64,000 nt of DNA from IMG/VR virus record IMGVR_UViG_3300036884_000676; one strand, written 5' to 3'. The notes below the pieces were generated by a model. That model searched no databases, was not told the origin of the DNA, and saw only the letters and a program-made list of their open reading frames with translations. A program made the position numbers and the translations under genes. Each line of letters begins with the position of its first letter. Within the stretch, counting starts at the first letter, position 1. Shown piece after piece: positions 3,631-60,456 of this stretch. Source of the DNA: a virus. Its lineage: Duplodnaviria > Heunggongvirae > Uroviricota > Caudoviricetes.

Positions 3631-3637
3631 TTTTTTT

Positions 3638-5617: not shown

Positions 5618-5621
5618 TCAA

Positions 5622-6603: not shown

Positions 6604-6658
6604 GACTAATTGGTTTTTCTTTTTATATATTAAAATAAAAAAATCAATTTTCAACCTG

Positions 6659-7111: not shown

Positions 7112-7126
7112 TATCTAATTATTATT

Positions 7127-7450
7127 TTATTTCACCGTATGGTGCAAGAAGAAATCAAAAGTATCATCATCATAATAATACAATGTAAATACAGCGGTAT
7201 ATTGACGATTCATGTTGAAATCACTCAATTCCAGACCAGATACATCACTAACATTAATAGTATTTTTGAAAAAGACAGTTTCAAGGAATATAATTTCCTC
7301 TGGGGTTAATCCTCTTTTAAATAAATAATTGAAATTTACATGAAATCCCTGCCTTGTGTCTATGACTTTGAACTTGGATTTAAAATCCAAACCGTGCTTT
7401 AATTCTTTATCTTTTTTGTTTTCATCGAGTATATCTTCTAATATATCCAT
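7127..7450 (-). CDS. hypothetical protein
   Basis: 107-aa ORF. Confidence 0.35.
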   Translation of the reverse strand: MDILEDILDENKKDKELKHGLDFKSKFKVIDTRQGFHVNFNYLFKRGLTPEEIIFLETVFFKNTINVSDVSGLELSDFNMNRQYTAVFTLYYYDDDTFDFFLHHTVK

Positions 7451-7497
7451 AATTGTGTTTTCCCTTCAATTATTATAGAAAAAGAAAGGGAATAAGT

Positions 7498-7731
7498 TTA
7501 AGATTTTATTAAAAAATTACCTGTCTGCCACCTACCGTCTGAACATATTTCATTGAGTTGTTCGAGGCTTAGATTATTGGGGTCCCACCCTTTCTTTTTA
7601 GCATATTCTCGTTTAAAGACTTCTCTTAATTCTTCTATCTCTTTTTCCGATAAAGCGGAATCTTTAATTATTTCATATTCTTCTTCCATTTTATTTGTGT
7701 TTATTTTTAGGAACAGATTTAGTAAATACAT
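7498..7731 (-). CDS. hypothetical protein
   Basis: 77-aa ORF. Confidence 0.3.
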   Translation of the reverse strand: MYLLNLFLKINTNKMEEEYEIIKDSALSEKEIEELREVFKREYAKKKGWDPNNLSLEQLNEICSDGRWQTGNFLIKS

Positions 7732-7960
7732 TATATTTTTCGCAAAATAAATATTCTAATCTACTACCCATATCCATTACCCCTAATAAATTTTCTTCAT
7801 TCCCACCTATCATAGATTCATCATAATCTACGAAATCTTTTTTACAAGTTTCAATATCTTCAATCATGTTTTTCAAAAATTGGGATTGGTCCATATTAGC
7901 CGTTTCTATCAAATAAATAAATTCGTTAGTTTTTTTAATTGATTCTTCTTTCGTTATCAT
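7691..7960 (-). CDS. hypothetical protein
   Basis: 89-aa ORF. A tiny upstream ORF overlaps it through an ATGA junction. Confidence 0.35.
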   Translation of the reverse strand: MITKEESIKKTNEFIYLIETANMDQSQFLKNMIEDIETCKKDFVDYDESMIGGNEENLLGVMDMGSRLEYLFCEKYNVFTKSVPKNKHK

Positions 7961-8301
7961 ATTGTTATTTTATTTTTTAATGTTTCAGTACATTCTTGAC
8001 TCATTTTATCTGTGAATTTCATATTATCAATACTTTTTATTTGTATATATTAATTATTCAACATGAATACGAGTGTTTTCATTTTTTTAATTTTTCTGAT
8101 TTGTTCAAAATATATGTCCAATTAATTAAATTTGAATCCCCGATCATATTCTGAATTTCTTCATTTGTGAATCTAATATATTCCTCAGTTGTCAGGTGTT
8201 TCATTATGAATCGGAGGAGCATCAGATAATATTCCTTCTGATTTTAATTTTTCTATTTCTTTTTCCATTTCATCCTTTGTCATAAGATTTTTGATTATTT
8301 T

Positions 8302-8787
8302 TTAGTCAATATGTATACGAGAATGTAAATACATCCTTGGTGTCCATTCCTCTGTTGAAATGATACTTATTGATTGAGCGATGGTTGTAAGATACAAATT
8401 ATTTTTAGTTTCTAATTCTTTGTTTATATAGTCAACTAATTTATCAACTAATATCCTTTCTAACTGTTGAACGATGGTTGAACTATCCAAAGAAGATTCT
8501 TTAATTGCTGTTATTTGAGCACTATCAACCTCAACATCGAAACTTAAAGTTGGTAATCCTTCTTTCAATATAACATTTTTATCCTTTATATTTAATTGAG
8601 ATAGAATTTTTAAAGAAACTGGTAATAAGTTTTGAGCAATATCATCCTCACCAAGTTTTGTTACTATTAAATTTTCAATTTCATGTTTAAGATGAAATTC
8701 AGCGTATTCAGCCATAATTTTTCTAACTTTTTCGTCTGTTACTTTTAGAGCGTCCATAATAGGACTCCATTTTGTGTAAATATCCAT
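8302..8787 (-). CDS. hypothetical protein
   Basis: 161-aa ORF. Confidence 0.4.
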   Translation of the reverse strand: MDIYTKWSPIMDALKVTDEKVRKIMAEYAEFHLKHEIENLIVTKLGEDDIAQNLLPVSLKILSQLNIKDKNVILKEGLPTLSFDVEVDSAQITAIKESSLDSSTIVQQLERILVDKLVDYINKELETKNNLYLTTIAQSISIISTEEWTPRMYLHSRIHID

Positions 8788-8833
8788 AATTGTTATTTAT
8801 TATTTTTTTAATTATATATTACCTAATAATGGT

Positions 8834-9016
8834 TCAAATTATTTCGTTAGTATTTATACCTTTTTCATTCAAATATTTCCTTATAAGATTTTCCACTATC
8901 TTCGATTTATTAACTCCATTATCTTCTGATTCTTTATTTAATAAATCATACAATTTTGGATTGATTGTAACACACAATCCCTTTCTTTTATCTTCATCTT
9001 GTAATTTATGTCTCAT
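8834..9016 (-). CDS. ribbon-helix-helix (CopG/Arc-like) DNA-binding protein
   Basis: 60 aa. The segment LCVTINPKLYDLL has beta-strand-like character and is followed by two short helices. It shares the TINP motif with the divergent small ORF at 9147. Confidence 0.45.
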   Translation of the reverse strand: MRHKLQDEDKRKGLCVTINPKLYDLLNKESEDNGVNKSKIVENLIRKYLNEKGINTNEII

Positions 9017-9146
9017 AAATAAATTTTGTTTTTAGCTTTATACTAAATATTATAAAATTTGTTTTATTTATAAAATAATGTAAAAATAATTCAAAAATAA
9101 CGACTTTTGACTTTTAAATATTTATATATAAGAATAAACAATCATT

Positions 9147-9311
9147 ATGAAACAAGAAAATAAAAAAATAAGAACGACATTCACAATCAATCCCGATATT
9201 GTGAATATTTTAAATGAACAACATATCAGAAATCATTCTAAACTTATTGAATGGTTACTTCTCAACCATTTTAAAGAAGTTGATATGGATGTAAAAAATA
9301 TAATTTTGTGA
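9147..9311 (+). CDS. ribbon-helix-helix-like small protein (not in the ORF track, 54 aa)
   Basis: Manual translation: MKQENKKIRTTFTINPDIVNILNEQHIRNHSKLIEWLLLNHF... Its stop TGA at 9309-9311 lies immediately before the 9313 start. Confidence 0.4.
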   Translation: MKQENKKIRTTFTINPDIVNILNEQHIRNHSKLIEWLLLNHFKEVDMDVKNIIL

Positions 9312-9312
9312 A

Positions 9313-10407
9313 ATGGGAAAAAGTTTAACCCAAGAAGAATTTATTGAAAGATGTAAATTGGCTCACGGTGATAAATATGATTATTCTAAAACTGTTTATA
9401 AAAATAGTTATTCTAAAGTTAAAATAATTTGTAAGAAACATGGAGAGTTCGAACAATTATCATCAGGACATATAGAAGGTCGTGGATGTTCTAAATGTTC
9501 AAATAATAAAAAACTAACAATCGAAGAATTTATTGAAAGATCCATTAAAGTTCATGGAGATATTTATGATTATTCAAAAGTGAATTATATCAATTTGGAT
9601 ACAAAGGTAAATATATTATGCAAAGAACATGGAGAATTTAAACAAATACCAGAACATCATATGAAAGGTCATGGATGTCCGTTTTGTAGTAAAATGGGTA
9701 GAAAAACCACCGAACAATATATAGAAATTGCTAAAAAAGTACATAATAATTTTTATGATTATTCTCAAACGATTTTTATCAATAACAAAAAAAAGGTAAA
9801 AATAATTTGTCCGAAACACGGAGAATTTTTACAAGATCCCAAACATCATTTAAGTGGTTCTGGATGTCCATTTTGTAATATTGTAACAACTGATGATTTT
9901 ATCAAAAAATCAAAAGATATTCACGGTAATCTTTATGATTATTCAAAAGTAAATTATATTAGAGCAAACGAGAAGGTAATTATAATATGCCTTAAACATG
10001 GTGATTTTAAGCAAGTACCAAATAATCACATACAAGGCCGTGGATGTCCAAAATGTAAATTGAGTAACGGTGAAAAAACTATAAATAAATTTTTGTCAGA
10101 TAATGATATTAAATTTGAAATACAGAAAAAATTTAATAAATGTATATTTCAAAAATATTTAAAATTTGATTTTTTCCTATTTGACTATAATATTTGTATT
10201 GAATATGATGGGGAACAACATTTTACACCAATAGATCATTTCGGTGGGAAAGATAGATTTGAAATAACAAAGATAACTGACCAAATAAAAACAACATTTT
10301 GTGAAAAAAATGGTATATTCTTATTGAGAATAAATTATAAAGAAAATATAGAAGAAAGATTACAATGGCTGATGAATTATTTGAAAACACCAATAAAAAA
10401 GAATTAG
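9313..10407 (+). CDS. repeat-containing PD-(D/E)xK (Vsr/DUF559-like) nuclease, homing-endonuclease-like
   Basis: Five tandem repeats of about 48 aa (YDYSK.NY...KV.IIC.KHGEF.Q.P..H..G.GCP.C) and a C-terminal FDFFLFDYNICIEYDGEQHF motif. The C-terminal motif resembles the restriction-endonuclease-like fold of Vsr/DUF559 family nucleases. Confidence 0.5.
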   Translation: MGKSLTQEEFIERCKLAHGDKYDYSKTVYKNSYSKVKIICKKHGEFEQLSSGHIEGRGCSKCSNNKKLTIEEFIERSIKVHGDIYDYSKVNYINLDTKVNILCKEHGEFKQIPEHHMKGHGCPFCSKMGRKTTEQYIEIAKKVHNNFYDYSQTIFINNKKKVKIICPKHGEFLQDPKHHLSGSGCPFCNIVTTDDFIKKSKDIHGNLYDYSKVNYIRANEKVIIICLKHGDFKQVPNNHIQGRGCPKCKLSNGEKTINKFLSDNDIKFEIQKKFNKCIFQKYLKFDFFLFDYNICIEYDGEQHFTPIDHFGGKDRFEITKITDQIKTTFCEKNGIFLLRINYKENIEERLQWLMNYLKTPIKKN

Positions 10408-17227: not shown

Positions 17228-17398
17228 ATGAGTAAAGAAGATTTATTAAAAATATGGCAACAAAGGGCAAAAGAATTACACGAAATTGCTGATAATGAGA
17301 GGATAAATTTTCCAGATAGAATTGAAGCCGGTGCAAAAGCAAATCAATTATTACAATGTATGCTCGATATAAAACAATTTTTAGAGGAAAAAATATGA
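17228..17398 (+). CDS. small hypothetical protein (56 aa, not in the ORF track)
   Basis: Manual translation: MSKEDLLKIWQQRAKELHEIADNERINFPDRIEAGAKANQLLQCMLDIKQFLEEKI. Its stop overlaps the PPK2 ATG in an ATGA junction. Confidence 0.3.
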   Translation: MSKEDLLKIWQQRAKELHEIADNERINFPDRIEAGAKANQLLQCMLDIKQFLEEKI

Positions 17399-18237
17399 AT
17401 ATAAAACAATTTGAAATAAACGGTAAGGGAAAAGTTGATATTAATTTAAATGATATTGATTTGAATGATGTCGATTCCGATATTACCGAACAAATAGAGG
17501 GGAACATAAAAAGCCTCATTGATTTACAGGATAAGTTATATGCTGATGGTAAATATTCAATACTATTAATTATTCAAGCGCTTGATACGGCTGGTAAAGA
17601 CGGAATCGTTAAGCATGTAATGTCGGGTCTTAATCCCCAAGCAACTCAGGTTTATAGTTTTAAACAACCCACTTCAGAGGAATTGAATCATGATTTCTTA
17701 TGGAAAGCTCACAAAAGTTTACCAGAGAGAGGACACATTGGTATCTTTAATCGTTCCTATTATGAAGAAGTTCTCGTAGTTAAGGTTCATGATCTGATAA
17801 AATTTCAGAGAATTCCAACCGTTTTGATTCATAAGGATATCTTTGAAGAAAGATATGAACAGATAAGAAATTTTGAAAAGATGCTTCATAAAAATGGAAC
17901 AGTCGTTATAAAAATATTCTTGAACATATCCAAAAAAGAACAAAAAGAAAGATTACTGGAGAGGATTGATGATAAATCTAAGAATTGGAAATTTTCGGAA
18001 TCTGACTTAAAAGAGCGTCAGTTCTGGGGTGATTATATGAAATGTTATGAAGATCTGATTAATGAAACATCCACCGATGATTGTCCTTGGTATGTTGTTC
18101 CGGCCAATCATAAAAAAACATCACGACTTATTGTTTCGAAAATTTTGGTTGAGAGAATGAAAAAATTAAATCTGGAATATCCTCAATTAACAAAAGAGCA
18201 AGAACAGAATTTATTGAAATGTAAGGAACAATTATAA
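17395..18237 (+). CDS. ppk2: polyphosphate kinase 2 (PPK2)
   Basis: PPK2 Walker A-like motif ALDTAGKDG and a conserved core (SFKQPTSEELNHDFLWKAHKSLPERGHIGIFNRSYYEEVLVVKVH). The probable start is the ATG at 17395 (MNIKQFE) rather than the track start at 17356. Confidence 0.85.
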   Translation: MNIKQFEINGKGKVDINLNDIDLNDVDSDITEQIEGNIKSLIDLQDKLYADGKYSILLIIQALDTAGKDGIVKHVMSGLNPQATQVYSFKQPTSEELNHDFLWKAHKSLPERGHIGIFNRSYYEEVLVVKVHDLIKFQRIPTVLIHKDIFEERYEQIRNFEKMLHKNGTVVIKIFLNISKKEQKERLLERIDDKSKNWKFSESDLKERQFWGDYMKCYEDLINETSTDDCPWYVVPANHKKTSRLIVSKILVERMKKLNLEYPQLTKEQEQNLLKCKEQL

Positions 18238-39524: not shown

Positions 39525-40190
39525 GTGGACGAAATTTACAAGAAATATTTTGGAATCGAGTGGTATGAAGAATTGAATGAAATCCTACATTCGGAATATT
39601 TTAACAATCTCAAATTATTTTTAAAAGAAGAAAAAGAAACTAAGATTATATATCCAGAAAAAATGGAATTAGCTTTTCGATCTTTTCGTGAAACTCCATT
39701 TAATAAAGTTAAGGTTGTGATTATAGGTCAGGATATTTATCACGATAATAGTTTCGATGGATTAGCTTTTAGTAATGGAACAAAGACATCAGGATTCAGT
39801 CCATCGCTTATCAATATAATGAAAGAAGTTAAATCGGATGTCGGTGGTCAGGTAAAATATAATTTAACTGATTGGTCAAGACAGGGTGTTTTTTTAATTA
39901 ATACTGGTTTAACAGTAGTCAAAGGAAAACCGGGAAGTCATACAGATAAATGGAAGCCTTTCATGTATAATGTAATAAAAGTATTAAGAAAAAGACAGAA
40001 TTTAGTTTATCTACTTTGGGGTAGTTTCGCTCAAAATTTTAGGCAGTTCATGGACGATGAAAATAATTTGATTCTTTGTTGTGGTCATCCCTCACCATTA
40101 AATACGAGTAGACCATTCACTGGAAATAAACATTTTAGTAAAACTAACATATATTTAGAGGAACATAATATTGAAAAAATAAACTGGTAA
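39525..40190 (+). CDS. ung: uracil-DNA glycosylase (family 1, Ung)
   Basis: GTG start. VVIIGQDIYHDNSFDGLAFS matches the GQDPYH water-activating loop, and GHPSPLN matches the HPSPLS motif. Collinear with E. coli Ung. Confidence 0.85.
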   Translation: MDEIYKKYFGIEWYEELNEILHSEYFNNLKLFLKEEKETKIIYPEKMELAFRSFRETPFNKVKVVIIGQDIYHDNSFDGLAFSNGTKTSGFSPSLINIMKEVKSDVGGQVKYNLTDWSRQGVFLINTGLTVVKGKPGSHTDKWKPFMYNVIKVLRKRQNLVYLLWGSFAQNFRQFMDDENNLILCCGHPSPLNTSRPFTGNKHFSKTNIYLEEHNIEKINW

Positions 40191-46490: not shown

Positions 46491-47258
46491 ATGGAGCCTC
46501 ATATAATTTCAGTAAGTCGTAGAGAAGATATTCCCGCATTCCGTGGCGATTGGTTCATGGAGAAAATAAAAAAGGGGTATGTTAATATGGTAAATCCTTG
46601 GTCAACATATACCATATCTTTCGAAAAAGTGAAATTGGCTGTATTCTGGTCGAAGAATCCAAGACCTTTTATGAAATATCTGGATTCTTTACCATTCAAA
46701 TATTATTTCCAATTTACATTAAATGGATATCCAGAATATGAATTAGAAGTCCCACCGATATTAGAAAGAATTGAAACTTTCAAGGAATTATCAGATAAAA
46801 TAGGTAGGGAGTGTGTAATATGGAGATTTGACCCGATTATTATTTCTGATAAAATAACAGAAGAAAAACTTTTAAGAAGAATTGAAAAAATTGGGAATGA
46901 AATACATAATTATACAGAAAAACTTGTATTTAGTTATATTGATCCCTATAAAAAATTGGGTAATAAATTCAAAGAAGTTCCTGATGATGTTAAAATTAGA
47001 ATTTCTAAACAATTAATAGAATTCAATAAAGATTGGGGATTGAAATTAGCCACCTGTGCCGAATCAATTAATTTGGATGGTATAGAACATAATAAATGTG
47101 TAGATCCTGAATTAATTGAACGAATATGTGGAAAACAAAGATGGATAACGAGTACAAAGGATAAAAATCAAAGAACTGAATGTGGATGTATCCAAAGTGG
47201 AGATATAGGAACATTTAAAACCTGTAAGCATCATTGTACATACTGTTACGCTTGTTAA
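46491..47258 (+). CDS. DUF1848-like protein with C-terminal Cys cluster
   Basis: The N-terminus HIISVSRREDIPAFRGDWFMEKIKKGYV resembles the DUF1848 signature (IISASRRTDIPAFY.EWF). C-terminal CKHHCTYCYAC. Confidence 0.5.
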   Translation: MEPHIISVSRREDIPAFRGDWFMEKIKKGYVNMVNPWSTYTISFEKVKLAVFWSKNPRPFMKYLDSLPFKYYFQFTLNGYPEYELEVPPILERIETFKELSDKIGRECVIWRFDPIIISDKITEEKLLRRIEKIGNEIHNYTEKLVFSYIDPYKKLGNKFKEVPDDVKIRISKQLIEFNKDWGLKLATCAESINLDGIEHNKCVDPELIERICGKQRWITSTKDKNQRTECGCIQSGDIGTFKTCKHHCTYCYAC

Positions 47259-50495: not shown

Positions 50496-51380
50496 ATGGA
50501 ATGGGATGCAATAAAATGGGCACAAACCTATAAAACTTCAAATCTTAACAGAAGAAAAGAACTTTTGATTGATGTTTGGGAAAACACGATTAAAATCGTT
50601 AAGAATGGAAAATACTTCTCGGATGGAGAAGTTATCATTGACAACTCGAAAGTGTGCCAGAACTCTTTATTTACTGAAAATGGCCCAATTTATGACCCAA
50701 CGGGGATAAATGACTTTAAAACTGAAATATTGGTCATGGATGCTGATTGTTTGGATGTAGCAAGAACGATGGAAAATCCGATAGTTTTAAATATGGCCAG
50801 TTATAAGAATCCCGGTGGTGGTGTAATAAATGGTTCATCGGCACAGGAAGAAAATTTATTCAGAAGAACCAATTTATTTAAATCTCTTTATCAATATGTT
50901 GATTATGCTCATCAGTATGGAATAGAACAAAATTCTAAATACAAATATCCATTGGGTGATTATGGTGCAATCTATTCAAAAGATATAACCGTTTTTCGTG
51001 GTTCTGAAAAAAATGGATATTATTTACTCTCCCATCCATTCAAATGTGCTTTTATATCTGTACCTGCAATAAAAAGACCAGAATTGAAGAATAGAAGAAT
51101 GAATGAAAATGACTTCTCCAAAACCAAACAAAAAATAAGAAGGATTTTTCAATTCGCTCATGAGAATGGACATAGAGATTTAGTTCTTTCCGCTTTTGGT
51201 TGTGGTGCTTATGGAAATCCACCCGAACAGATAGCTTCAATCTTTAAAGAATTATTAGATACTGAATATAAAGGGGTTTTTCATAAGATAGTATTCGCTA
51301 TCTATGATGATCATAACTCATATAAAGAACACAATCCAGATGGAAATTTAAAACCATTCAAGAAAATATTTAATATATAA
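50496..51380 (+). CDS. bacterial-type poly(ADP-ribose) glycohydrolase (DUF2263 macrodomain)
   Basis: NMASYKNPGGGVINGSSAQEENLFRRTNLFKSL carries the PARG GGG-X7-QEE catalytic signature. The C-terminal LVLSAFGCGAYGNP also matches bacterial PARGs. Confidence 0.75.
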   Translation: MEWDAIKWAQTYKTSNLNRRKELLIDVWENTIKIVKNGKYFSDGEVIIDNSKVCQNSLFTENGPIYDPTGINDFKTEILVMDADCLDVARTMENPIVLNMASYKNPGGGVINGSSAQEENLFRRTNLFKSLYQYVDYAHQYGIEQNSKYKYPLGDYGAIYSKDITVFRGSEKNGYYLLSHPFKCAFISVPAIKRPELKNRRMNENDFSKTKQKIRRIFQFAHENGHRDLVLSAFGCGAYGNPPEQIASIFKELLDTEYKGVFHKIVFAIYDDHNSYKEHNPDGNLKPFKKIFNI

Positions 51381-51387
51381 TCACATT

Positions 51388-51972
51388 ATGACAAATTTAT
51401 ACATTGATGAATTGGATTTCGAAGATGATGAAAATATCAAAATTATTGATTTTCCAATAACAAGACAAGCCTATTCATATACTTGTGGTTGTGATATAGT
51501 AGAAAGAACAATGGAATTTTATGGTGAAAATTTTCGTGAATCTGATTTAGTTGAAATTTTGAAAACTAACGAAGAAGAAGGAACACTTGTAAAAAACATA
51601 GTGAAATTTTTTCATTATCATGATCTAAAGACTGAATTACAACAAGATATGACAATTGATGATCTGATTAAATATGTGGATAAGAACATTCCAGTAATTG
51701 TTTTGATACAAGCTTGGGGAACTGATTTTAAATTCAAAAGAAAATATAAAGAAACTTGGGGAGATGGACATTTTGTGGCTGTAATTGGATACACAGATAA
51801 ACTTTTATTAATTAGTGATCCGTCTTTATTTAATGTCGGATATATACCAAAATCTGAATTTATGAACAGATGGCATGACATTGATGATGGACTTGAAACA
51901 TATCAACTCGGATTGGCTGTTTTTGGAAGAAAAGCAATATTTGATAAAGATAAGTTAGAAAGAGTCAGATGA
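51388..51972 (+). CDS. papain-like cysteine peptidase (C39/C1-like)
   Basis: Q...YSYTCGCDIV is a nucleophile Cys context. DGHFVAVIGY resembles papain DHAVAAVGY around the catalytic His. Confidence 0.5.
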   Translation: MTNLYIDELDFEDDENIKIIDFPITRQAYSYTCGCDIVERTMEFYGENFRESDLVEILKTNEEEGTLVKNIVKFFHYHDLKTELQQDMTIDDLIKYVDKNIPVIVLIQAWGTDFKFKRKYKETWGDGHFVAVIGYTDKLLLISDPSLFNVGYIPKSEFMNRWHDIDDGLETYQLGLAVFGRKAIFDKDKLERVR

Positions 51973-52732: not shown

Positions 52733-53084
52733 ATTTTTGATCGGAAAATCTGAATCTATGATTCAGGATGTTAATAATATTAGAAATGATATTATTGAGA
52801 TTGATGATGAAACCTTAGAATTTTTAAATGAAGAGAATCAAAGATATTCTCGTGAAATGGATTTTGACTATATCCCACCACCTTATAAACCACTATTCGG
52901 AGAAACGATTTTAGGAATTAGACTATGGCACGAACATTCTTGTGAATTATTTACAACTGAGTTTAATCTGGAAAATATTAATGTTAGTGGATTAGCAACT
53001 CGTGTTTTTCGTGGAATTGATTTAGTTGCAAAACTACAAAATCATATTAGATACAAAAAATTAGAAAAAATATTAAATGATTGA
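52713..53084 (+). CDS. hypothetical protein (paralog family member 2)
   Basis: MMDFLDKFLIGKSE...FGETILGI...IRYKKLEKILND. Confidence 0.4.
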   Translation: MMDFLDKFLIGKSESMIQDVNNIRNDIIEIDDETLEFLNEENQRYSREMDFDYIPPPYKPLFGETILGIRLWHEHSCELFTTEFNLENINVSGLATRVFRGIDLVAKLQNHIRYKKLEKILND

Positions 53085-53475
53085 TATGAATTTTTTAGAT
53101 AAATTTTTGATTGGGAAATCGGTTGAACCAGATATTAAAAATCATATTTGGTGTAATTTATTTGAAACCAATGAAAAAGATATTGATGGAATTTTGGAAT
53201 TTTTATCTCAAGAAAATAAAAAATATTGTGAAGAAATGAATTGGGATTCATGGAAATTTAATTATAGAAAACCAAAATTCGGGGAAACAATAATCGGAAT
53301 TGGAACAAAAAGTGCAGCTGGTACTGAAATGTATAATTCTTGTTATATAATTACAACTGACTTTATGAATAGACCAGATGGATTCGTATCTCATTGTTAT
53401 TCGGGTCATGAAATATCAGAAAAAATACAAAATTTCATTAGATCTCAAAAATTAAAATCGTTGTTAAATGATTGA
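53077..53475 (+). CDS. hypothetical protein (paralog family member 3)
   Basis: MIDMNFLDKFLIGKSVE...FGETIIGI...IRSQKLKSLLND. A tandem duplicate of the previous ORF. Confidence 0.4.
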   Translation: MIDMNFLDKFLIGKSVEPDIKNHIWCNLFETNEKDIDGILEFLSQENKKYCEEMNWDSWKFNYRKPKFGETIIGIGTKSAAGTEMYNSCYIITTDFMNRPDGFVSHCYSGHEISEKIQNFIRSQKLKSLLND

Positions 53476-54202
53476 TATAAATAAAATATATTTCGATAAT
53501 TGTTTACATCTAATGCCTGATATTGATACTCATATTGTTGATATGATTCTTGCTGATTTACCATACGGAGTCACAAGAAACAAGAAAGATATTATGATCC
53601 CATTTGAATTACTCTGGAAGAACTACAATCGAATTATAAAACCGAATGGATGTATTGCTTTATTCGCTCAGGGAATGTTCGCTCACAAACTTGCTTTATC
53701 TAATGAGAAAATGTATCGTTATGATTTGATATGGAAAAAAGGAGAAAGGGTCACTGGATTTTTAAATGCAAAAAAACAAATACTTAGAAACCATGAGCAA
53801 ATTTTGATTTTCTATAAAAAACAACCAACTTACCATCCACAATTTACAGAGGGGACACCTCAGCATTCAAAAGGTAACGCTTTTTCTTTCAAAGAAGGAA
53901 AAAATCAAAATTATGGTTATTTTGATTCGAAAATTCCAGATATAAGAAAAGGAACTACACAAAAATATCCGAAAAGTGTTTTAAACTTCGAAAAACCTTG
54001 GCCACCTGTACATAGAACCCAAAAACCAGTAAAATTGTGTGAATGGTTAATATTGACCTTTACGAATCCCGGAGAATTAGTACTGGATAACACTTGTGGT
54101 ATTGGAACAACCTGTATAGCAGCTAAGAATACAGGAAGAAATTTCATAGGAATTGAAAATGATGAAGAATTTTATAATATGGATTATTATCATTTGTTAT
54201 GA
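53468..54202 (+). CDS. DNA N6-adenine/N4-cytosine methyltransferase (beta class)
   Basis: Motif IV ILADLPYG (DPPY-like) precedes motif I VLDNTCGIGTT. The C-terminal GRNFIGIE is typical of N-methyltransferases with the circularly permuted beta-class architecture. Confidence 0.75.
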   Translation: MIDINKIYFDNCLHLMPDIDTHIVDMILADLPYGVTRNKKDIMIPFELLWKNYNRIIKPNGCIALFAQGMFAHKLALSNEKMYRYDLIWKKGERVTGFLNAKKQILRNHEQILIFYKKQPTYHPQFTEGTPQHSKGNAFSFKEGKNQNYGYFDSKIPDIRKGTTQKYPKSVLNFEKPWPPVHRTQKPVKLCEWLILTFTNPGELVLDNTCGIGTTCIAAKNTGRNFIGIENDEEFYNMDYYHLL

Positions 54203-54706
54203 ATAAATATTAGAATCATCTATATCCCAACTTCCATCATTTTTAATATTCTTAATATAATTCGGGTAAAACATAATAAAATCTTTTCTAATTACATCAA
54301 TATCAGTATTGGACTTTTCAATAATTATACCATCATAATTTAACAATATCTTATTCTTTATATTAATTATCTCACTCTTCCATTCCTTAACATCATTCAT
54401 ATAATCAAACCAAGTTTCATAAATCTTTGGATTTTCTATTTTCAAATAAACTTTTAAAATTTTCGGATTTAATTTATTGTGTGTAAAAACTTTAGCAACC
54501 TTTAATGATTCAGTAAACCAACACCCTTTACTACAATCAAATATTTTATCAATAGTTGATTTATAATATTCACCTGTTCCGTGATAAGCAATTAATGGAT
54601 GATTATTTTCATCTACGACTTTACTTTCATCAAACCATTTATAAAAATTAGGATTTAAATTTTTATATTCTTCAAACATTTTTAGATATTTCATAGAATT
54701 TACCAT
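54197..54706 (-). CDS. H-G-T motif protein (ART-fold-like paralog)
   Basis: MVNSMKYLKMFEE... then PLIAYHGTGEY...KGCWFTESLKV. C-terminal ILLNYDGIIIEKS aligns with the other paralogs. Confidence 0.5.
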   Translation of the reverse strand: MVNSMKYLKMFEEYKNLNPNFYKWFDESKVVDENNHPLIAYHGTGEYYKSTIDKIFDCSKGCWFTESLKVAKVFTHNKLNPKILKVYLKIENPKIYETWFDYMNDVKEWKSEIINIKNKILLNYDGIIIEKSNTDIDVIRKDFIMFYPNYIKNIKNDGSWDIDDSNIYS

Positions 54707-56019
54707 CTTTTAGTATTAGATATCTTAAAATCTTTTATTCTATTTAAATTTTCTTCGGTTGGCATAGGATCTACATTGAATTTCTTCTTAAATTCACGCC
54801 TCGATATTCCCCAACTTTCATATCCTTTCGAATCTAAATTATTAAATACGATTCCACCACTTGTATTACTTCTCCAAACATACTGAGATTCTATTCTTAT
54901 TCCATCTAATTCATAGTTGGCCTTTTTATCATCATGATCGAAGAATTGAACCGATAATGGACTATTTGCTCCGATCCAATAATCGCCATCCACAATTTCT
55001 ATATCATCTATGGTAAATTTGTAATTTACTGGAATTTCTATGATATATTCTTTTTCTTTTTTACCAGAAACATAATCTACTTCTCCAAAAAATTCTTCTG
55101 TCTTTGGTGAAGTGACTATTTTTACCTTAGTCGGATCAACTCTCAAAATAATACCCTCTTTATTTGCGAAATAAGCAGCTATATCCCTTGATTCGGTAAA
55201 AGATAAGAATTTTCCATCCGATATTTTTGACATTCCTTTCTCAACGATAAATTGAATCAAATTATCAATGAAAGTTTTGACCCAAGTAGTATGTTTATCA
55301 TCAATCCCTTTAGCTTGTTCTTGTGATACTTTTCTTAATTGTTCAATTTCTTTACCTTTTAATCCTTGGAATACCCTTATTCCCCTATATAAATTCTTTG
55401 GAAGTTTCGGTTTATCTTTTTTTATTTTATAATGGTGATAGAAGGAATATAACCAAACATATTGAACTATGTTATTAACTTTCTTAATTGATAAATTATT
55501 TGTTATCGTATAGGCTGGAATACCATCAAAATCAACCCATCTTTTCACGACATCCTTGTGGAGATCAAAATCATATTTAGTACTTTTAGGGTTTGTATTT
55601 TTAATTTTTTCAAGATCCGTAAATCTATTTAAAAATCTAAGTCCATTTGTAGAATTCACATCACCAAACACATTTCTACTTTCTAATCCACCAGAGGCAA
55701 CAATTAACATAGCTGTTTGTTGTCTGAGATCTTTAAAAATGCTAGCTCCCTCCTTTGGAATTTTTTGTCCTATCTGAGCGACAGTATGTAATAAAGATTT
55801 ACTAACTGAATCCTTCCAATTAAGAATCATATTCTCTCTGATTTGAGTATATTTATTAAAGTCCATTCCCATCAAATTAACGAGTTCTTCTTCAGTATTA
55901 AAACCAGTTTTTATGGAATTTTTTAACTTTTCCTTAAATTCTGACCAATCAGTAAATTTTATCGAATCATTGAATTGACCATATCTTTCATTCAAAAATT
56001 CTGAGAATGAATACAACAT
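54700..56019 (-). CDS. Alt-like ADP-ribosyltransferase (R-S-E clade) with CTS-like leader
   Basis: The probable start is the internal Met at 56019, giving MLYSFSEFLNE|R. The R motif is NLYRGIRV, the S-x-S/T motif is FLSFTESRDIA and the E-x-E motif is KEKEYIIEI. The upstream part of the 569-aa track ORF overlaps a plus-strand ORF and is probably spurious. Confidence 0.5.
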   Translation of the reverse strand: MLYSFSEFLNERYGQFNDSIKFTDWSEFKEKLKNSIKTGFNTEEELVNLMGMDFNKYTQIRENMILNWKDSVSKSLLHTVAQIGQKIPKEGASIFKDLRQQTAMLIVASGGLESRNVFGDVNSTNGLRFLNRFTDLEKIKNTNPKSTKYDFDLHKDVVKRWVDFDGIPAYTITNNLSIKKVNNIVQYVWLYSFYHHYKIKKDKPKLPKNLYRGIRVFQGLKGKEIEQLRKVSQEQAKGIDDKHTTWVKTFIDNLIQFIVEKGMSKISDGKFLSFTESRDIAAYFANKEGIILRVDPTKVKIVTSPKTEEFFGEVDYVSGKKEKEYIIEIPVNYKFTIDDIEIVDGDYWIGANSPLSVQFFDHDDKKANYELDGIRIESQYVWRSNTSGGIVFNNLDSKGYESWGISRREFKKKFNVDPMPTEENLNRIKDFKISNTKRW

Positions 56020-56074
56020 AAGAAAGATTTTTTCTTTATATATTAAAAATTTTTGTAACCTTTTTGAATATCTG

Positions 56075-56350
56075 ATGTCAAATGGACAAAACAAAAAAGA
56101 GATTATGAAAAAAATTATAGTATTTTTGATGTTAATGTTTATTGGAAGTATAACATTAGCTGATGGAGACAAATCAACAAAATCAGAAGTAATTATTACC
56201 ACTACTATAACAAAAGAAATCAACATTGATATATTGAAGCCAATAGTACCATTGGAAGCCACCTTTGATGAGGATTCTCTTGATTCGATTAATATATATT
56301 CTTTAAGACCAACAACCCCAAAAGAAGCAACCTTTGATGATGAAAAATAA
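56075..56350 (+). CDS. secreted small protein with PxEATFD repeats
   Basis: Signal peptide MKKIIVFLMLMFIGSITLA. Repeated PLEATFDEDS / PKEATFDDEK. Confidence 0.35.
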   Translation: MSNGQNKKEIMKKIIVFLMLMFIGSITLADGDKSTKSEVIITTTITKEINIDILKPIVPLEATFDEDSLDSINIYSLRPTTPKEATFDDEK

Positions 56351-56612
56351 AGATCTAAATGATGATTTTTTAAAAAACCTTTTTCAAAAAACACCAGAAT
56401 GTTGTCCATCTGATGATTTTGTAGAAAAGGTTATGAATGCTTGTTGTACCGTTGAAGTAAAACAAACATTCAATATTTTTGTGTGGTTAAGAGAAAAACA
56501 ATCTAAGCTGGTGATAAGTATGACTACTGGTATAATACATTCTTTCGATAATATGTTGAAAGACTATAAACTGGTCACTCAAATTCCCCAACCAATTCAG
56601 CAATCAATTTAG
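56334..56612 (+). CDS. hypothetical protein
   Basis: 92-aa ORF with CCPSDD and ACC. Confidence 0.3.
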   Translation: MMMKNKDLNDDFLKNLFQKTPECCPSDDFVEKVMNACCTVEVKQTFNIFVWLREKQSKLVISMTTGIIHSFDNMLKDYKLVTQIPQPIQQSI

Positions 56613-58050
56613 ATTCCTCACTTTTTAATTCATCCAGAACAGCCCCATCTTTTAACATGAATTTTTTATATTTCTGTCTATCGTCATAGATAAGGCTCAT
56701 AACCTGATTTACTACTCCAATTTCATTACGGAATACAGCCCCATTTAATAGAACAATGTCGGTTGGTTCAATTTCAATTTTCTTATTATTGAATATGGCA
56801 TATTTCTTATCACTCGAAATGATACCTTTATAACTATCGACAGAGATATTGAACATTATCATACAGGTTGGATACAAACTCTTAAAGTCATAACAGGGTG
56901 TCCAATGGCTCATACCTTTAACTGGTTCTTTAACATAACCACCCAAAACACCTTCAACATCCACTACATTTTCAGAACGGTCTAATCTACAAAGAACAAC
57001 ATTCTTCTCTTTTTTCAGTTTTCTTCTTAAAATTCCCTCTGTTACAGGTAAGGTACTGTATGAATCCCCAATTTTTACTCTCGAAAGAGTTGAAATACCA
57101 TATAAAATATTGATCAATTTTGTCTTTTCATGAATCTTTTGAACAAGTACGGAGTCAACCGCGTTATAATAAACGAATTTCTTATAATCTGTATTATATA
57201 AGGTTTTAAGACTTCCTTCATAATTAACTTTCTTAACTCCAAGAACATTATCAGATACGAAGTCCAGACTAATTGATTCCTTAACTCTAATGGATGTATC
57301 CCATTTTTTGAATAGTTCCATATAGTCAACAACCATTCGATGAGCTGGTAATTCACAATATGTCTTTTTTTCCATATCCCAAGGTTCTCTCAGTAATTTT
57401 GTTACTGAAGCTACACTCGGATCTATTCCAAGTTTACGAGCTCTATTAACAAGAAAAACCCAGTCATATTCGGTAAAATTCCAACCAGTTAAAACTGGCA
57501 TTCTCGGAACAAATTTCACAAAGAAATTCAATAACATTTCATATTCACTTTTGAAATGAATATATTTGAACTGATAAATAGTTCCGAATTTGGCGAAATA
57601 ATTATTTATATCTTCTTCAATGGATTTGGAAATAACTTCAGATAATTCCTGAGTCCCCATTACCAGAACTTTATCTTTATTGACAATGGAAATGGATTGT
57701 ATGGCACTTTCAGCTAAATGAGGAGCTGGTTTTTTGTCTATAATTTCATTTTCAATATCGATGAAAAATATATCAGGTTCATTATATTGAAAAATAATAT
57801 CCTGTTCTTCCTGAGGTAATTCATCTATGTAATCATAGACGGAATAACGATTTGGATTTTTGGTGGGAACTGATTTAACTGATCGCCCATCCCATGTAAC
57901 ATACTTTCCATCTCTTTGATGGTCATCGTCATCACAGGTAATATATTTGGTGGCATTGGGCCACTTATAATATCTTAATTTTACTTGTTTACTACTATCT
58001 ACATGAGATACAATAAGTGTATTATTTCTGTATTCGTAATCTACTAACAA
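56575..58050 (-). CDS. family B DNA polymerase, N-terminal (43A-like) fragment of a split T4-type gp43
   Basis: Exo I FFIDIENE (T4 gp43 ISIETVG region), exo II TGWNFTEYDWVFLVNR (T4 TGWNIEGFDVPYIMNR), exo III YNAVDSVLV (T4 YNIIDVESV), motif A CYDFKSLYPTCMIMFNIS (T4 SFDLTSLYPSIIRQVNIS). The ORF stops about 100 aa after motif A. Motifs B (KxxxNSxYG) and C (YGDTDS) are absent. Confidence 0.85.
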   Translation of the reverse strand: MLVDYEYRNNTLIVSHVDSSKQVKLRYYKWPNATKYITCDDDDHQRDGKYVTWDGRSVKSVPTKNPNRYSVYDYIDELPQEEQDIIFQYNEPDIFFIDIENEIIDKKPAPHLAESAIQSISIVNKDKVLVMGTQELSEVISKSIEEDINNYFAKFGTIYQFKYIHFKSEYEMLLNFFVKFVPRMPVLTGWNFTEYDWVFLVNRARKLGIDPSVASVTKLLREPWDMEKKTYCELPAHRMVVDYMELFKKWDTSIRVKESISLDFVSDNVLGVKKVNYEGSLKTLYNTDYKKFVYYNAVDSVLVQKIHEKTKLINILYGISTLSRVKIGDSYSTLPVTEGILRRKLKKEKNVVLCRLDRSENVVDVEGVLGGYVKEPVKGMSHWTPCYDFKSLYPTCMIMFNISVDSYKGIISSDKKYAIFNNKKIEIEPTDIVLLNGAVFRNEIGVVNQVMSLIYDDRQKYKKFMLKDGAVLDELKSEESKLIAELVGEFE

Positions 58051-58089
58051 TCATTCGGTTATTATTTTTTGGAATTTATTAATTAAAAC

Positions 58090-58497
58090 TTAGACTTTTA
58101 TATCCAAATCTTTAACCTTTTGTTTTAATAATTTTGGAAAAAGTTTCATTTGTACCCAGAAATCATTTTCAAGATCATCATATTCTTTCAAGTCATATTC
58201 GGCTTCTAATATCATATTATTAATCTTTTCATCCTTGGGTAAATCATTCAACTTTTTTAATATTATTTTAATATTATTCTTTTGTGTTTGAATTGTTGAA
58301 TATGTATTAAAAAAAGATGGAAAATCATTATTGATTTTTTTGGAATTTATAAGGTCATTCAATACTCCACATTTCTCATATTCTTCAGTTTCTATGAATA
58401 TTTTATATGAATAAATCAGATCTTGCTCGTTTAACAAAAACTTATTTTCTTTTATAAGCAATATAATATAATTCGCTATATCTAATTCTTTATCCAT
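58090..58497 (-). CDS. hypothetical protein (paralog of 58645..59109)
   Basis: Shared segment DLIYSYKIFIETEEYEKCGVLNDLI versus DLIFAYNYFLELEEYEKCSILNEFI. Confidence 0.4.
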   Translation of the reverse strand: MDKELDIANYIILLIKENKFLLNEQDLIYSYKIFIETEEYEKCGVLNDLINSKKINNDFPSFFNTYSTIQTQKNNIKIILKKLNDLPKDEKINNMILEAEYDLKEYDDLENDFWVQMKLFPKLLKQKVKDLDIKV

Positions 58498-58644
58498 TTT
58501 TATGAAGTATTACTGGTTCAAGTTCAATAAGTCTTTCTCTCAATTCGAGATTCAACTTATAATATTCTCTTAATCGTTCTTCGAGTTCTTCCCTTGTCAT
58601 TTCAGGTAAAAGAAGTTCGAATGTATCCATTTCTTCTTTCTGGT

Positions 58645-59109
58645 TCATTTTTCAGATTTTTCTATTTCGTCAATTTCTTTTTGTTTCAATATGATAAGAT
58701 TATCTATTTCTTTCAATTCATTTTTTATTTTTATCATCTCTTTTATATCTTCTTGAATAGAATGAATATTATCCCAAAAATCTTTTTCGTACTTTTGAAG
58801 ATCATTCAATATTTTTTCAATTTTCAATATAAGATTCTTTTTATCTTCGAAATCCTCTGAATTTTTTAATTCATTAAGATCTTTTAATTGTCTATTACAT
58901 ATATTTCTCTGTTCATTGATCCATGTATATTCATCAATATATGATTCCTCCTCACTATCGAATTCTTTAATCTTTATGAATTCATTCAAAATAGAGCATT
59001 TTTCATATTCCTCTAATTCGAGGAAATAATTATATGCAAAAATTAAATCCTTTTCACTTACAGTTGTAACCTTTGATAATGAAAAAATGAAATTTATTAA
59101 TTCGTTCAT
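58645..59109 (-). CDS. hypothetical protein (paralog of 58090..58497)
   Basis: See above. C-terminal coiled coil. Confidence 0.4.
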   Translation of the reverse strand: MNELINFIFSLSKVTTVSEKDLIFAYNYFLELEEYEKCSILNEFIKIKEFDSEEESYIDEYTWINEQRNICNRQLKDLNELKNSEDFEDKKNLILKIEKILNDLQKYEKDFWDNIHSIQEDIKEMIKIKNELKEIDNLIILKQKEIDEIEKSEK

Positions 59110-59483
59110 TTCAATAAACTTTTAAACAAATCCAATTTCTTTTTAGCATTTACTTCACCAGAATTAAAATCACCAGCCAATTCACTTCCGTAACTATTCC
59201 ATGCTGATACAGCGGAATCATGTTCTTTTTCATATTCTTTTTCCAATTTTGGAATTTCTATTTCTATATGAGTACGGAAATGTTTTTGTAATAATATTTT
59301 TAACTCTTTACTGAATTTCTCAGAACATCTATATTCGGTATCAATTACCTCGATATTAGTAAATTGTTTTTCCTCTAACATTTTATTTAAAATCTTATCG
59401 GATTGAATCGAATTATTTTTTGTTTGAGTGTAAAGATTGATCAGATCTTCAAATGCTGTAGTTTCTTTTGTTTCTTTTTCCAT
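59106..59483 (-). CDS. hypothetical protein
   Basis: 125-aa ORF with overlapping stop/start. Confidence 0.35.
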   Translation of the reverse strand: MEKETKETTAFEDLINLYTQTKNNSIQSDKILNKMLEEKQFTNIEVIDTEYRCSEKFSKELKILLQKHFRTHIEIEIPKLEKEYEKEHDSAVSAWNSYGSELAGDFNSGEVNAKKKLDLFKSLLK

Positions 59484-59487
59484 ATTA

Positions 59488-59730
59488 TTATTGATATATT
59501 TTTATCACCGATGATTTAAATTCTTCGATAGATTGAAATTGGACATTATGACCACCAACTCTAAAATCAAGTAAATCATCTTTGATATTAAAAGTATGAG
59601 TGAACAACATAGTTTCTTTATCGAAAACACCAGATTGTTTTTTCATATACCAAATTTTATTATTCTTAAATTGTGGTGTTTGGATTTGACATTCGATTAA
59701 TTGTTTATCTGGAATTTCTATGTTCTTCAT
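59488..59730 (-). CDS. hypothetical protein
   Basis: 80-aa ORF. Confidence 0.3.
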   Translation of the reverse strand: MKNIEIPDKQLIECQIQTPQFKNNKIWYMKKQSGVFDKETMLFTHTFNIKDDLLDFRVGGHNVQFQSIEEFKSSVIKIYQ

Positions 59731-59944
59731 ATGCTTTAATTATTTTATTGAGAATAAATGCTTCCATATCTATCATACATTTTCCATATCCATCTGGAGT
59801 TTTTTCAGTAAAATTAGAAGCGGTATCAGCTACGGCATCATGTGAGATAGACATTGTAAAATCATTTATAGTAAAATGAAACATTCCGAATTGATATGGA
59901 TCAAAAAGAATTTTATATCCACCAAATTCAATTTCTTTTTTCAT
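59705..59944 (-). CDS. hypothetical protein
   Basis: 79-aa ORF. Confidence 0.3.
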   Translation of the reverse strand: MKKEIEFGGYKILFDPYQFGMFHFTINDFTMSISHDAVADTASNFTEKTPDGYGKCMIDMEAFILNKIIKAYEEHRNSR

Positions 59945-60456
59945 TTACTTTTTTTATTTTTCGCTGTTATAAGATCATGAATAGCCTTAATAATTTTGGC
60001 ATAAAATTTATCCAAATTGTAAACTATTTCTTGTTCTGGTCTTGCTAATTTGGTTTGAATTTCGACATCGGATATTCTCTCATATTCTTCATCACAACCT
60101 ATTACTATTTTTGTCGGTTGAGATGTACCATGTTTACCAAGTTCATATAATACAATTGGATTTAGAGATCCTTTGGAGAACCAAAAAACAATAATATCAG
60201 ATTCTCTTAATCCCTTGTATTCCCATGTTATTTGTTCTACACTGGCATTGGGATCATCAATCGGGAAATTTTTTCTACGGGGGTTAAGTACTGTAACTTG
60301 ATCTAATAAATATTTATCATATTCTTTTTTTTCAGCTTTCATTTTTTCAATGAGTTCAGCCTGCCAATCTGGACAATTGGTTATACCACCAGCCAAAAAT
60401 AATTTTAATTCATTTTCTTCCTGTGGCTTATTCGGGGCTTCTATAATTTCTAACAT
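59941..60456 (-). CDS. nucleoside 2-deoxyribosyltransferase-like protein
   Basis: LKLFLAGGITNCPDWQ and IIVFWF...NPIVLYELGK resemble the Nuc_deoxyrib_tr / DUF4406 fold (LAGPI...W, E.G.A). Confidence 0.4.
   Translation of the reverse strand: MLEIIEAPNKPQEENELKLFLAGGITNCPDWQAELIEKMKAEKKEYDKYLLDQVTVLNPRRKNFPIDDPNASVEQITWEYKGLRESDIIVFWFSKGSLNPIVLYELGKHGTSQPTKIVIGCDEEYERISDVEIQTKLARPEQEIVYNLDKFYAKIIKAIHDLITAKNKKSK

Follow-up and report, generated by a model that had tools for sequence, protein, structure and literature searches.

The ORF at 56575-58050 of the stretch of DNA analysed here (64,000 nucleotides; henceforth, the window) encodes a subunit of a DNA polymerase, and is neither a truncated nor a disrupted polymerase gene. 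Our preferred reading, to which we give a probability of about 0.85, is that the gene is intact and specifies the N-terminal one of two subunits that make up the family B replicative polymerase (PolB) of a huge phage from the Mahaphage clade, and that the partner subunit is encoded by an unlinked gene. A two-piece enzyme of this kind is known; what is unusual is how widely its genes are scattered.

The gene and its end point

From the N-terminal domain onward, the protein runs through the three exonuclease motifs and motif A to the first finger helix (Table 1). Its N-terminus, MLVDYEYR, read from a TTG start, matches that of homologues. Pfam recognizes the PolB exonuclease domain (PF03104, E = 2.7e-9), and the match to the PolB profile itself (PF00136) covers positions 20-140 only of 453. 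The top PHROG is phrog_2062, a 502-position profile labeled 'DNA polymerase'. Identity to RB69 gp43 is about 20-25%: residues 158-467 align to residues 183-491 of gp43, and, by alignment, the protein ends at about RB69 residue 515, that is, at the tip of the fingers and ahead of motif B (K560). Motif A holds one of the two catalytic aspartates of the polymerase. Since motifs B and C are absent, the ORF specifies a subunit and not a complete polymerase. This bears out the earlier note on this DNA, which had recognized only the exonuclease plus motif A half of a T4-type polymerase, and had compared it to 43A, with the break placed in the fingers.

The AlphaFold2 model of the protein (mean pLDDT 79.8) ends in a helix of 45 residues, and its closest solved structures are chains of RB69 gp43 (E = 4.6e-22; TM score normalized to the query, 0.56-0.60). 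The AlphaFold2 models used here are of single chains and of moderate confidence. Two of the alignments, and the first of these models, were made from 56575-58047, without the first codon, which puts their residue numbers one below those given here.

Table 1. Positions in the window of the polymerase gene, its motifs and its neighbors
Feature	Position	Strand	Remarks
N-half gene (split family B DNA polymerase, N-terminal subunit)	56575..58050	-	491 aa; TTG start; TGA stop at 56575-56577
Exo I, FFIDIENE	57745..57768	-	residues 95-102; catalytic D98 and E100; invariant in 45 homologues
Exo II, GWNFTEYD	57463..57486	-	residues 189-196; N191 and D196; invariant in 45 homologues
Exo III, YYNAVDS	57151..57171	-	residues 294-300; Y295 and D299; invariant in 45 homologues
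Motif A, DFKSLYP	56869..56889	-	residues 388-394; invariant in homologues; aligns with RB69 DLTSLYP
Long C-terminal helix	56578..56718	-	residues ~445-491; counterpart of first finger helix of RB69 gp43; acidic tail ...LDELKSEESKLIAELVGEFE
DNA past the stop	56020..56574	.	no minus-strand polymerase coding capacity; two small plus-strand ORFs
Small ORF, 91 aa	56337-56612	+	38-nt overlap with the polymerase gene
Small ORF, 73 aa	56129-56350	+	converges, like the 91-aa ORF, on the polymerase 3′ end
439-aa ORF	54700-56019	-	next same-strand gene; no Pfam, PHROG or PDB match
ART-PolyVal gene	54197-54706		confirmed
Methyltransferase gene	53468-54202		confirmed
PARG gene	50496-51380		confirmed

Surroundings and the search for the back half

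A relative with an N-half of 74% identity also has the two small ORFs that face the end of the gene, and their order is conserved. The next gene on the polymerase strand had been called an Alt-like ART; the databases lend that call no support, which does not disprove it. The ART, methyltransferase and PARG genes said to lie nearby are indeed there. Scanning for promoters and terminators gave matches at chance level only, and megablast against phage records gave none.

The back half (C-half) was sought by several routes. No frame of the window contains a pattern for motif B (Kx3NSxYG) or motif C (YGDTDS). Ten C-half queries run by tblastn against the window returned no E value better than 0.8, and neither did the same ten against 4 kb past its 3′ end. 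In the 7.6 kb past its 5′ end, none of the called genes has a Pfam match to PolB. The C-half is thus absent from about 64 kb downstream and 10 kb upstream of the N-half (the window plus about 12 kb of flank). Farther afield, the searches used a C-half and a thumb piece as queries, and reached about 10 kb of flank and the best 120 matches. Among the matches listed, which included the members of 30 protein clusters, no C-half or thumb homologue came from the 736,551-bp contig that carries the same N-half protein, and no C-half candidate came from the samples holding the window. The JGI metagenome contigs that matched the search included none from metagenome 3300036885. Only nine ORFs of the window were matched, at scattered positions, in the three stretches examined of the related genome LR756501; with gene order so poorly conserved, the position of the partner is not predictable from synteny. 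Judging by all the relatives examined, the C-terminal cistron of this genome probably lies outside the window, as the earlier note supposed.

The partner gene in relatives

A separate C-half gene is present in every relative that is complete or has enough sequence. These stand-alone genes encode 450-570 aa, with motif B (LNATYG or LNGSYG), motif C (DTDS) and the thumb. The two halves divide the PF00136 profile between them, the C-half proteins matching from about position 124-149 onward, and the C-half profile aligns to RB69 residues 524-605. Unsplit relatives also exist. In P0418 (949 aa, 46% identical to the N-half), a short turn joins the tail of the N-half and the head of the C-half in one continuous sequence, and Flavobacterium phage MaF61 likewise has an unsplit gene, of 994 aa.

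In four curated "Mahaphage" genomes of 634-735 kb, the halves are 115 kb (LR756501, 735 kb), 132 kb (LR756502, 642 kb), 101 kb (LR745206, 635 kb) and 281 kb apart (LR756504, 636 kb). In eight metagenomic contigs of 34-676 kb, the separations are 7.8, 7.8, 30.6, 51.5, 81.5, 86.5, 118 and 118 kb. The halves lie on opposite strands, 30-281 kb apart, in six of these contigs and in every curated huge-phage genome. In the other two contigs and in Lak-B2 (550 kb) both halves are on one strand and the C-half is the upstream gene; in Lak-B2 the distance is 6.9 kb.

Cultured relatives are more compact. Tenacibaculum phage pT24 (235 kb; BPT24_165 and BPT24_168) and Chryseobacterium phages MA9V-1 (214 kb; MA9V1_135 and MA9V1_138) and MA9V-2, which are large myophages associated with Bacteroidota, have a homologous N-half (28% identity) and a separate C-half. 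Their N-halves end at the same alignment position as the one studied here. Their halves are adjacent and collinear, with two small genes (1.2-2.2 kb) in between, and the records label both half genes 'DNA polymerase'.

Such an arrangement is a plausible starting state for a large insertion within the polymerase locus, as had been proposed for the window: a contiguous locus would have been broken, leaving the equivalent of 43B collinear, on the same strand and just past the window. That this genome's own C-half was not located in the searches run also fits. However, the roughly 64 kb downstream is free of a C-half and carries ordinary phage genes on both strands, and the opposite-strand and C-then-N layouts of relatives could not be produced by simple insertion. 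We consider this explanation unlikely. As the halves in relatives are not collinear pieces of one locus, the ART, methyltransferase and PARG genes are neighbors of the polymerase gene, not an insert between its cistrons.

The same failure to find the partner would suit an orphan N-half, left behind by loss of the C-half and serving as a lone 3′-5′ exonuclease or as partner of some other polymerase. Group 2.2 jumbo phages do have an additional, split minimal PolIII-like enzyme (PMC7824862). But no polymerase besides the N-half was seen in the window, and the C-half is there in every complete relative. Moreover, motif A and the finger helix, of no use to a lone exonuclease, are strictly conserved with the closest relatives, and the reach of the searches is enough to explain a missing partner. 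The chance of an orphan is therefore small.

Comparison with known split polymerases

The nearest precedent is the split gene 43 of Aeromonas phages 25, 31, 44RR and 65, and of Acinetobacter phage 133 (PMC3061061; PMC2988022). The earlier note had named the Aeh1 group as the example; these two papers cite Aeh1 for its split nrdA instead. The 43A and 43B products make up the same RB69/T4-like PolB, broken at the same place, between the two finger helices at their tip, with the exonuclease and motif A on the N piece, and motifs B and C and the thumb on the C piece (PMC3061061; PMC2988022; PMC2677866). The difference is in the layout: in the T4-related phages one cistron follows the other collinearly, with 2 bp to 3 kb between them, whereas the N-half here has no partner for about 64 kb downstream and 10 kb upstream.

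Unlinked halves have a precedent in archaea. The PolB of Methanothermobacter thermautotrophicus is, as cited in PMC3061061 and PMC2677866, the product of two genes about 85 kb apart and free of an intein; it is split in the palm, some 83 residues C-terminal to the finger-tip position. Among jumbo phages, the chimallivirus PhiKZ also has a PolB of two separately encoded subunits, DNAP-N and DNAP-C (gp82 and gp50), the N subunit bearing motif A and the C subunit motif C, as we propose here (PMC13648687). The PhiKZ enzyme belongs to a different, highly divergent PolB clade, however, and its split falls inside a large insertion domain of the palm, not at the finger tip (PMC13648687).

The Nanoarchaeum equitans PolB, with its split intein, stands for a different solution, the 'fractured genes' of Dassa et al. 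(2009; PMC2677866), and suggests that the halves here might be joined covalently after expression, by a split intein or by RNA splicing at the finger-tip junction. Inteins do occur in the polymerase of relatives, at motif C of the C-half, either as a mini-intein or as a split intein with an endonuclease gene between its parts. In the latter case the layout is that of the fractured genes, an extein-IntN gene and an IntC-extein gene flanking a small endonuclease-like gene. The finger-tip junction, in contrast, has no intein parts. The tail of the N-half is a helix that extends 24 residues beyond the aligned finger helix, with neither an intein N-fragment nor a Pfam intein match. The N-termini of the C-halves lack an intein C-fragment (...HN followed by S, T or C) and have instead a TPR-like hairpin or helices; the hairpin is extra to the C-half head in the LR756501 and P0150 groups. 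These two C-half groups also go with an acidic C-terminal tail, which is missing with the 453-aa and ~535-aa types. As to RNA, Rfam detected no intron or ribozyme at E <= 1 within 53000-60000, there is no downstream exon within 64 kb, and cis-splicing is ruled out by partners that lie on the opposite strand or in permuted order. Joining of the halves by either route thus seems very improbable. Since there is no intein in the T4-related 43A/43B pair or at the finger tip here, assembly of the halves would be non-covalent.

Integrity of the reading frame

The identical 491-aa protein is encoded on 13 contigs from independent samples, the 736,551-bp contig among them, and a Logan contig matches the window at 100% identity across 17.4 kb. 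Homologues have the same length, about 480-510 aa in the best 120 of 1,186 (bar one partial of 359 aa), and the split length is shared by about 105 of the 150 top-ranking representatives of clusters at 50% identity. They also stop at the same place: 15 of 15 aligned homologues end within about eight residues of one another. The D, S, L, Y and P of motif A, residues that serve only a polymerase, are invariant in 45 sequences. These observations contradict the suggestion that the gene is disrupted, and the 13 identical copies, together with the absence of polymerase homology downstream, speak against a frameshift at its end.

An ORF cut short by an assembly or frameshift error, by decay into a pseudogene, or by misreading of a stop that an alternative code would read through hardly merits credence, even though some phages of the Mahaphage clade (Lak) have an alternative code (PMC7824862) and TAG stops are rare in the window (4 of 86 long ORFs), because the protein and its end point are conserved as above, the actual stop is TGA (used by 30 of the 86), code 11 ORFs 100 aa or longer take up 85% of the window, and in the 60 or so codons past the stop the frame meets TAG, TAG, TGA and TAA, while polymerase homology is seen in no frame. 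Recoding of the stop at the end of the N-half was rejected on the same grounds, the normal use of TGA and the presence of all stop types downstream.

A proposed two-subunit polymerase

On the two-subunit reading that we prefer, the N-half would contribute the N-terminal domain, the 3′-5′ proofreading exonuclease, the first finger helix and the first palm segment, in which the motif A aspartate sits. Its partner chain, from an unlinked gene outside the window, would bring motif B on the second finger helix, motif C on the remainder of the palm, and the thumb. The two would pair non-covalently, through the divided finger tip and the palm sheet they have in common, and so form one active site.

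Other systems make such an association credible. The 43A and 43B proteins of phage 25 co-purify and polymerise, as PMC2988022 relates in citing Petrov (2010). Pfu polymerase engineered to be split at the finger tip retains full activity (PMC3061061), and PhiKZ DNAP-N and DNAP-C form a stable 1:1 complex, as seen by cryo-EM (PMC13648687). When the halves are folded alone, model confidence is low at motif A of the N-half, and at motif B and the primer-binding region of the C-half; that the low-confidence segments belong to the active site may hint, weakly, at mutual dependence of the halves.

More tentatively, it is conceivable that the largest known phages always build their replicative polymerase from two unlinked products, or three in some relatives by way of the split intein at motif C. 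At the finger tip, chain continuity would then have given way to a lineage-specific clasp, in which the N-half's acidic terminal helix binds the TPR-like hairpin at the C-half head, and the partner in this genome may be fragmented or too divergent for detection. If so, the unlinking of the genes could give the exonuclease half and the polymerase half each its own dose or timing.

Implications

The annotation should be corrected from a truncated or disrupted polymerase to a polymerase subunit. More generally, a split at the finger tip, first seen in a few T4-like phages, prevails in a very large and mostly uncultured clade that includes the biggest known phage genomes, where the two pieces (in some genomes three) are scattered over tens to hundreds of kb. 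Our search of the literature found no description of a finger-tip PolB split that prevails, in scattered form, in a clade of huge phages. The finding is relevant to phylogenies and to checks of genome completeness in which PolB serves as a marker. The clade also offers a natural series for asking how an essential enzyme withstands the fission and unlinking of its genes and their fracture by inteins.

A polymerase gene that ends at the finger tip

The minus-strand ORF at 56575-58050 (491 aa; start TTG, stop TGA) encodes the front piece (N-half) of a T4-type family B DNA polymerase, whose back piece (C-half) is a separate gene in relatives. If TTG is translated as Met, the protein starts with MLVDYEYR, matching its homologues. 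It matches the PolB exonuclease domain (PF03104) and, of the polymerase domain (PF00136), profile positions 20-140 of 453 only; its top PHROG is phrog_2062, a 502-position 'DNA polymerase' family. Since RB69 gp43 residues 183-491 align to N-half residues 158-467, the chain ends at about RB69 residue 515, at the finger tip. From 45 homologues AlphaFold2 gave a model with mean pLDDT 79.8; the value exceeds 90 in the greater part of the N-terminal and exonuclease domains but is only 30-42 around motif A, and the C-terminal end is a 45-residue helix. The top solved-structure matches to the model are all RB69 gp43 (E = 4.6e-22).

Thirteen contigs, drawn from several samples and up to 736,551 bp long, encode the identical protein (P0001). 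The best 120 of 1,186 homologues are about 480-510 aa each, save one 359-aa partial. When 15 are aligned, their C-termini lie no more than about 8 residues apart, and that of Chryseobacterium phage MA9V-1 (28% identity) is among them. The earlier note's claim of a split gene is thus borne out, with Exo I-III and motif A present (see table) and the chain ending before motif B; the disrupted gene that it also entertained does not fit the recurrence on 13 contigs or the length and end point common to the homologues.

An exhaustive search of cluster representatives (50% identity) found the split length in about 105 of the best 150 and unsplit proteins of 740-980 aa in about 30, a patchiness that implies repeated fission or re-fusion. 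The unsplit P0418 (949 aa; 46% identity to the N-half) is continuous here: a short turn joins its counterparts of the N-half tail and the C-half head, so that the break falls precisely at the helix-turn-helix that forms the finger tip. In LR756502-type genomes the split N-halves share 40% identity with the N-half, which makes P0418 the nearer relative. The polymerase gene of Flavobacterium phage MaF61 is also unsplit (994 aa).

Features of the split polymerase, its relatives and the window
Feature	Sequence	Position (strand)	Remark
Exo I	N-half	residues 95-102	FFIDIENE
Exo II	N-half	residues 189-196	GWNFTEYD
Exo III	N-half	residues 294-300	YYNAVDS
Motif A	N-half	residues 388-394	DFKSLYP
Small ORF, 73 aa	window	56129-56350 (+)	converges on polymerase gene
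Small ORF, 91 aa	window	56337-56612 (+)	covers last 38 nt of polymerase gene
Microbial-type PARG	window	50496-51380	
C39-type peptidase	window	51388-51972	beside ADP-ribosylation genes
N6/N4 DNA methyltransferase	window	53468-54202	beside ADP-ribosylation genes
ADP-ribosylation genes	window	704-1872, 54197-54706	
ADP-ribosylation genes	L063/L064 (loci reaching past window start)	5601-9519	in the 7.6 kb before window start
Accessory genes	window	17356-18237, 28644-29543, 30849-33176, 33290-34093, 34434-35225, 39525-40190, 46491-47258	
N-half; C-half	LR756501, 735,411 bp	90.2-91.7 kb (-); 709.6-710.9 kb (+)	115 kb apart
N-half; C-half	LR756502, 642,428 bp	253.9-255.4 kb (+); 120.5-121.9 kb (-)	132 kb apart
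N-half; C-half	LR745206, 634,780 bp	232.8-234.3 kb (+); 130.6-131.9 kb (-)	101 kb apart
N-half; C-half	LR756504, 636,363 bp	255.9-257.3 kb (+); 538.0-539.1 kb (-)	281 kb apart
N-half; C-half	Lak-B2, 549,839 bp	510.7-512.2 kb (-); middle 522.7 kb, thumb 519.8 kb (-)	6.9 kb, C-half upstream
N-half; C-half	eight metagenomic contigs, 33,576-675,678 bp		7.8, 7.8, 30.6, 51.5, 81.5, 86.5, 118, 118 kb apart
N-half; C-half	pT24, 234,670 bp; MA9V-1, 213,507 bp		collinear, 1.2-2.2 kb apart
Intein/fractured C-halves	L047; L052 (other contigs)	3001-5537; 48-3855	proteins P0146, P0154, P0157, P0169, P0233

Location of the back half

The records nearest to the N-half are curated, circular huge-phage genomes of the Mahaphage clade, with Bacteroidetes as predicted hosts (Al-Shayeb et al., 2020; PMC7162821); identity to the LR756501 N-half is 67%. 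Every one of these genomes encodes motifs B and C on a separate C-half ORF, which in LR756501 is 566 aa long (KTVLNATYG and YGDTDS). In both metagenomic contigs with a 7.8-kb separation the halves share a strand with the C-half upstream, and in the remaining six of the eight they are on opposite strands. For this clade there is nothing unusual in the layout of the window, where no C-half lies within 64 kb to one side of the N-half or 10 kb to the other.

In the window, motif B and motif C patterns are absent from all six frames, and ten C-half, middle-piece and thumb queries gave a best tblastn match of only E = 0.8; they gave nothing better in a 100%-identical Logan contig reaching 4 kb beyond the window end. 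In loci reaching 7.6 kb beyond the window start, no called gene has a PolB Pfam match. Read on past its TGA stop, the N-half frame is closed by TAG, TAG, TGA and TAA in the next 60 or so codons. Rfam found no intron or ribozyme in 53000-60000. Stop-codon recoding was rejected: TGA closes 30 of the 86 long ORFs (TAA 52, TAG 4), and 85% of the window lies in code-11 ORFs that are 100 aa or longer.

None of the C-half and thumb matches and cluster members listed lies on a 736,551-bp contig, and no candidate C-half was traced to samples holding the window; the JGI contigs returned in a scan for it include none from metagenome 3300036885. Synteny with LR756501 is too weak to predict the partner's position. 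By analogy with relatives, in which fragmentation is common, the partner may itself be in pieces, and such fragments would rank below the best 120 matches listed. That the genome has no C-half at all, leaving the N-half an orphan, is unlikely, given that motif A is conserved. Both the motif A and the exonuclease residues are invariant across 45 N-half sequences, and motif A is needed for polymerisation only, which argues that the N-half works within a polymerase. A large insertion within the polymerase locus is not supported: one such event between collinear cistrons could not produce the opposite-strand and C-half-upstream layouts of relatives. Of the earlier note's interpretation the split stands, and the disruption and insertion are not supported; the partner most probably lies elsewhere in the window's genome.

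Gene neighborhood

The 555 bp after the N-half stop hold two small plus-strand ORFs, followed by a 439-aa minus-strand ORF (54700-56019), an order kept in a relative with a 74%-identical N-half. The small ORFs are 42-48% identical to those in the same place in the relative and are, on that conservation, probably real genes. For the 439-aa ORF, which the earlier note called an Alt-like ART, Pfam, PHROG and PDB sequence searches gave no match; a syntenic ORF in L015, a locus from another contig, shares 68% identity with it. A longer reading of 569 aa (to 56409) probably just continues through non-coding sequence.

ADP-ribosylation genes are plentiful in the region (see table), with several ART-PolyVal genes at and just before the window start and one more at 54197-54706. 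The accessory genes encode polyphosphate kinase 2, a fusion of MazG with a cytidylyltransferase, an SPFH/Band 7 protein of 775 aa, a radical SAM protein, a SprT-like protease, a uracil-DNA glycosylase-superfamily protein and a DUF1848 protein. The 64-kb window yielded no tRNA genes. About 6 kb past the window end there is a major capsid gene of the gp23 type (L001 1968-3797). Megablast of the window against the phage collection gave no match and few window ORFs match the examined parts of LR756501; thus the window seemingly comes from a distinct, similarly huge phage. At 736,551 bp, the longest contig with P0001 slightly exceeds the phage genome reported to be the largest (735,411 bp).

A probable polymerase of two or more chains

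PF00136 continues on the C-half from about position 124-149 onward, and the C-half profile aligns to RB69 residues 524-605. Together, the two chains would rebuild a complete PolB. The catalytic aspartates would be shared out, motif A coming from the N-half and motif C from the C-half. Since no intein parts flank the finger-tip break, the association should be non-covalent. Single-chain models give the active-site segments of both halves low confidence, which may hint, weakly, at mutual dependence.

The LR756501 and P0150 groups of C-halves have a conserved N-terminal hairpin that resembles one TPR (sub-threshold Pfam TPR_1 matches, consensus-TPR PDB chains and two confident model helices). It spans residues about 16-45 (P0150; LR756501 ORF L007 2785-4485), just ahead of the second finger helix, and is absent from the 453-aa C-half type; RB69 gp43 has no counterpart. 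Speculatively, it may serve as a heterodimerisation clasp that grips the N-half by its acidic terminal helix.

Finger-tip splits are compatible with full activity: the 43A and 43B proteins of Aeromonas phage 25 purify together and polymerise (PMC2988022), and a Pfu enzyme divided at the finger tip performs like the wild type (PMC3061061). The separately encoded PhiKZ DNAP-N/C divides motifs A and C in the same way and forms a stable 1:1 complex (PMC13648687). In T4-related phages the finger-tip split is known with cistrons 2 bp to 3 kb apart; the unlinked halves of M. thermautotrophicus PolB are about 85 kb apart and split in the palm (PMC3061061, PMC2677866). Public databases already contain the family, whose cultured members have two CDSs, both labelled 'DNA polymerase'; our literature search found no paper on the split or its dispersal in the Mahaphage/Lak clade.

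Some relatives carry a 167-aa mini-intein inside motif C of the C-half (DTD|S...HN|S). In other relatives the C-half is a fractured gene, in which the middle piece (extein)-IntN is followed by an endonuclease-like ORF or IS605 TnpB and then by IntC-thumb. The small endonuclease-like ORF between the intein pieces is 119-127 aa long, with IS605 TnpB beside it in L052. Thumb-only proteins of about 323-329 aa are also numerous. Phages with a fractured C-half would assemble their polymerase from three gene products.
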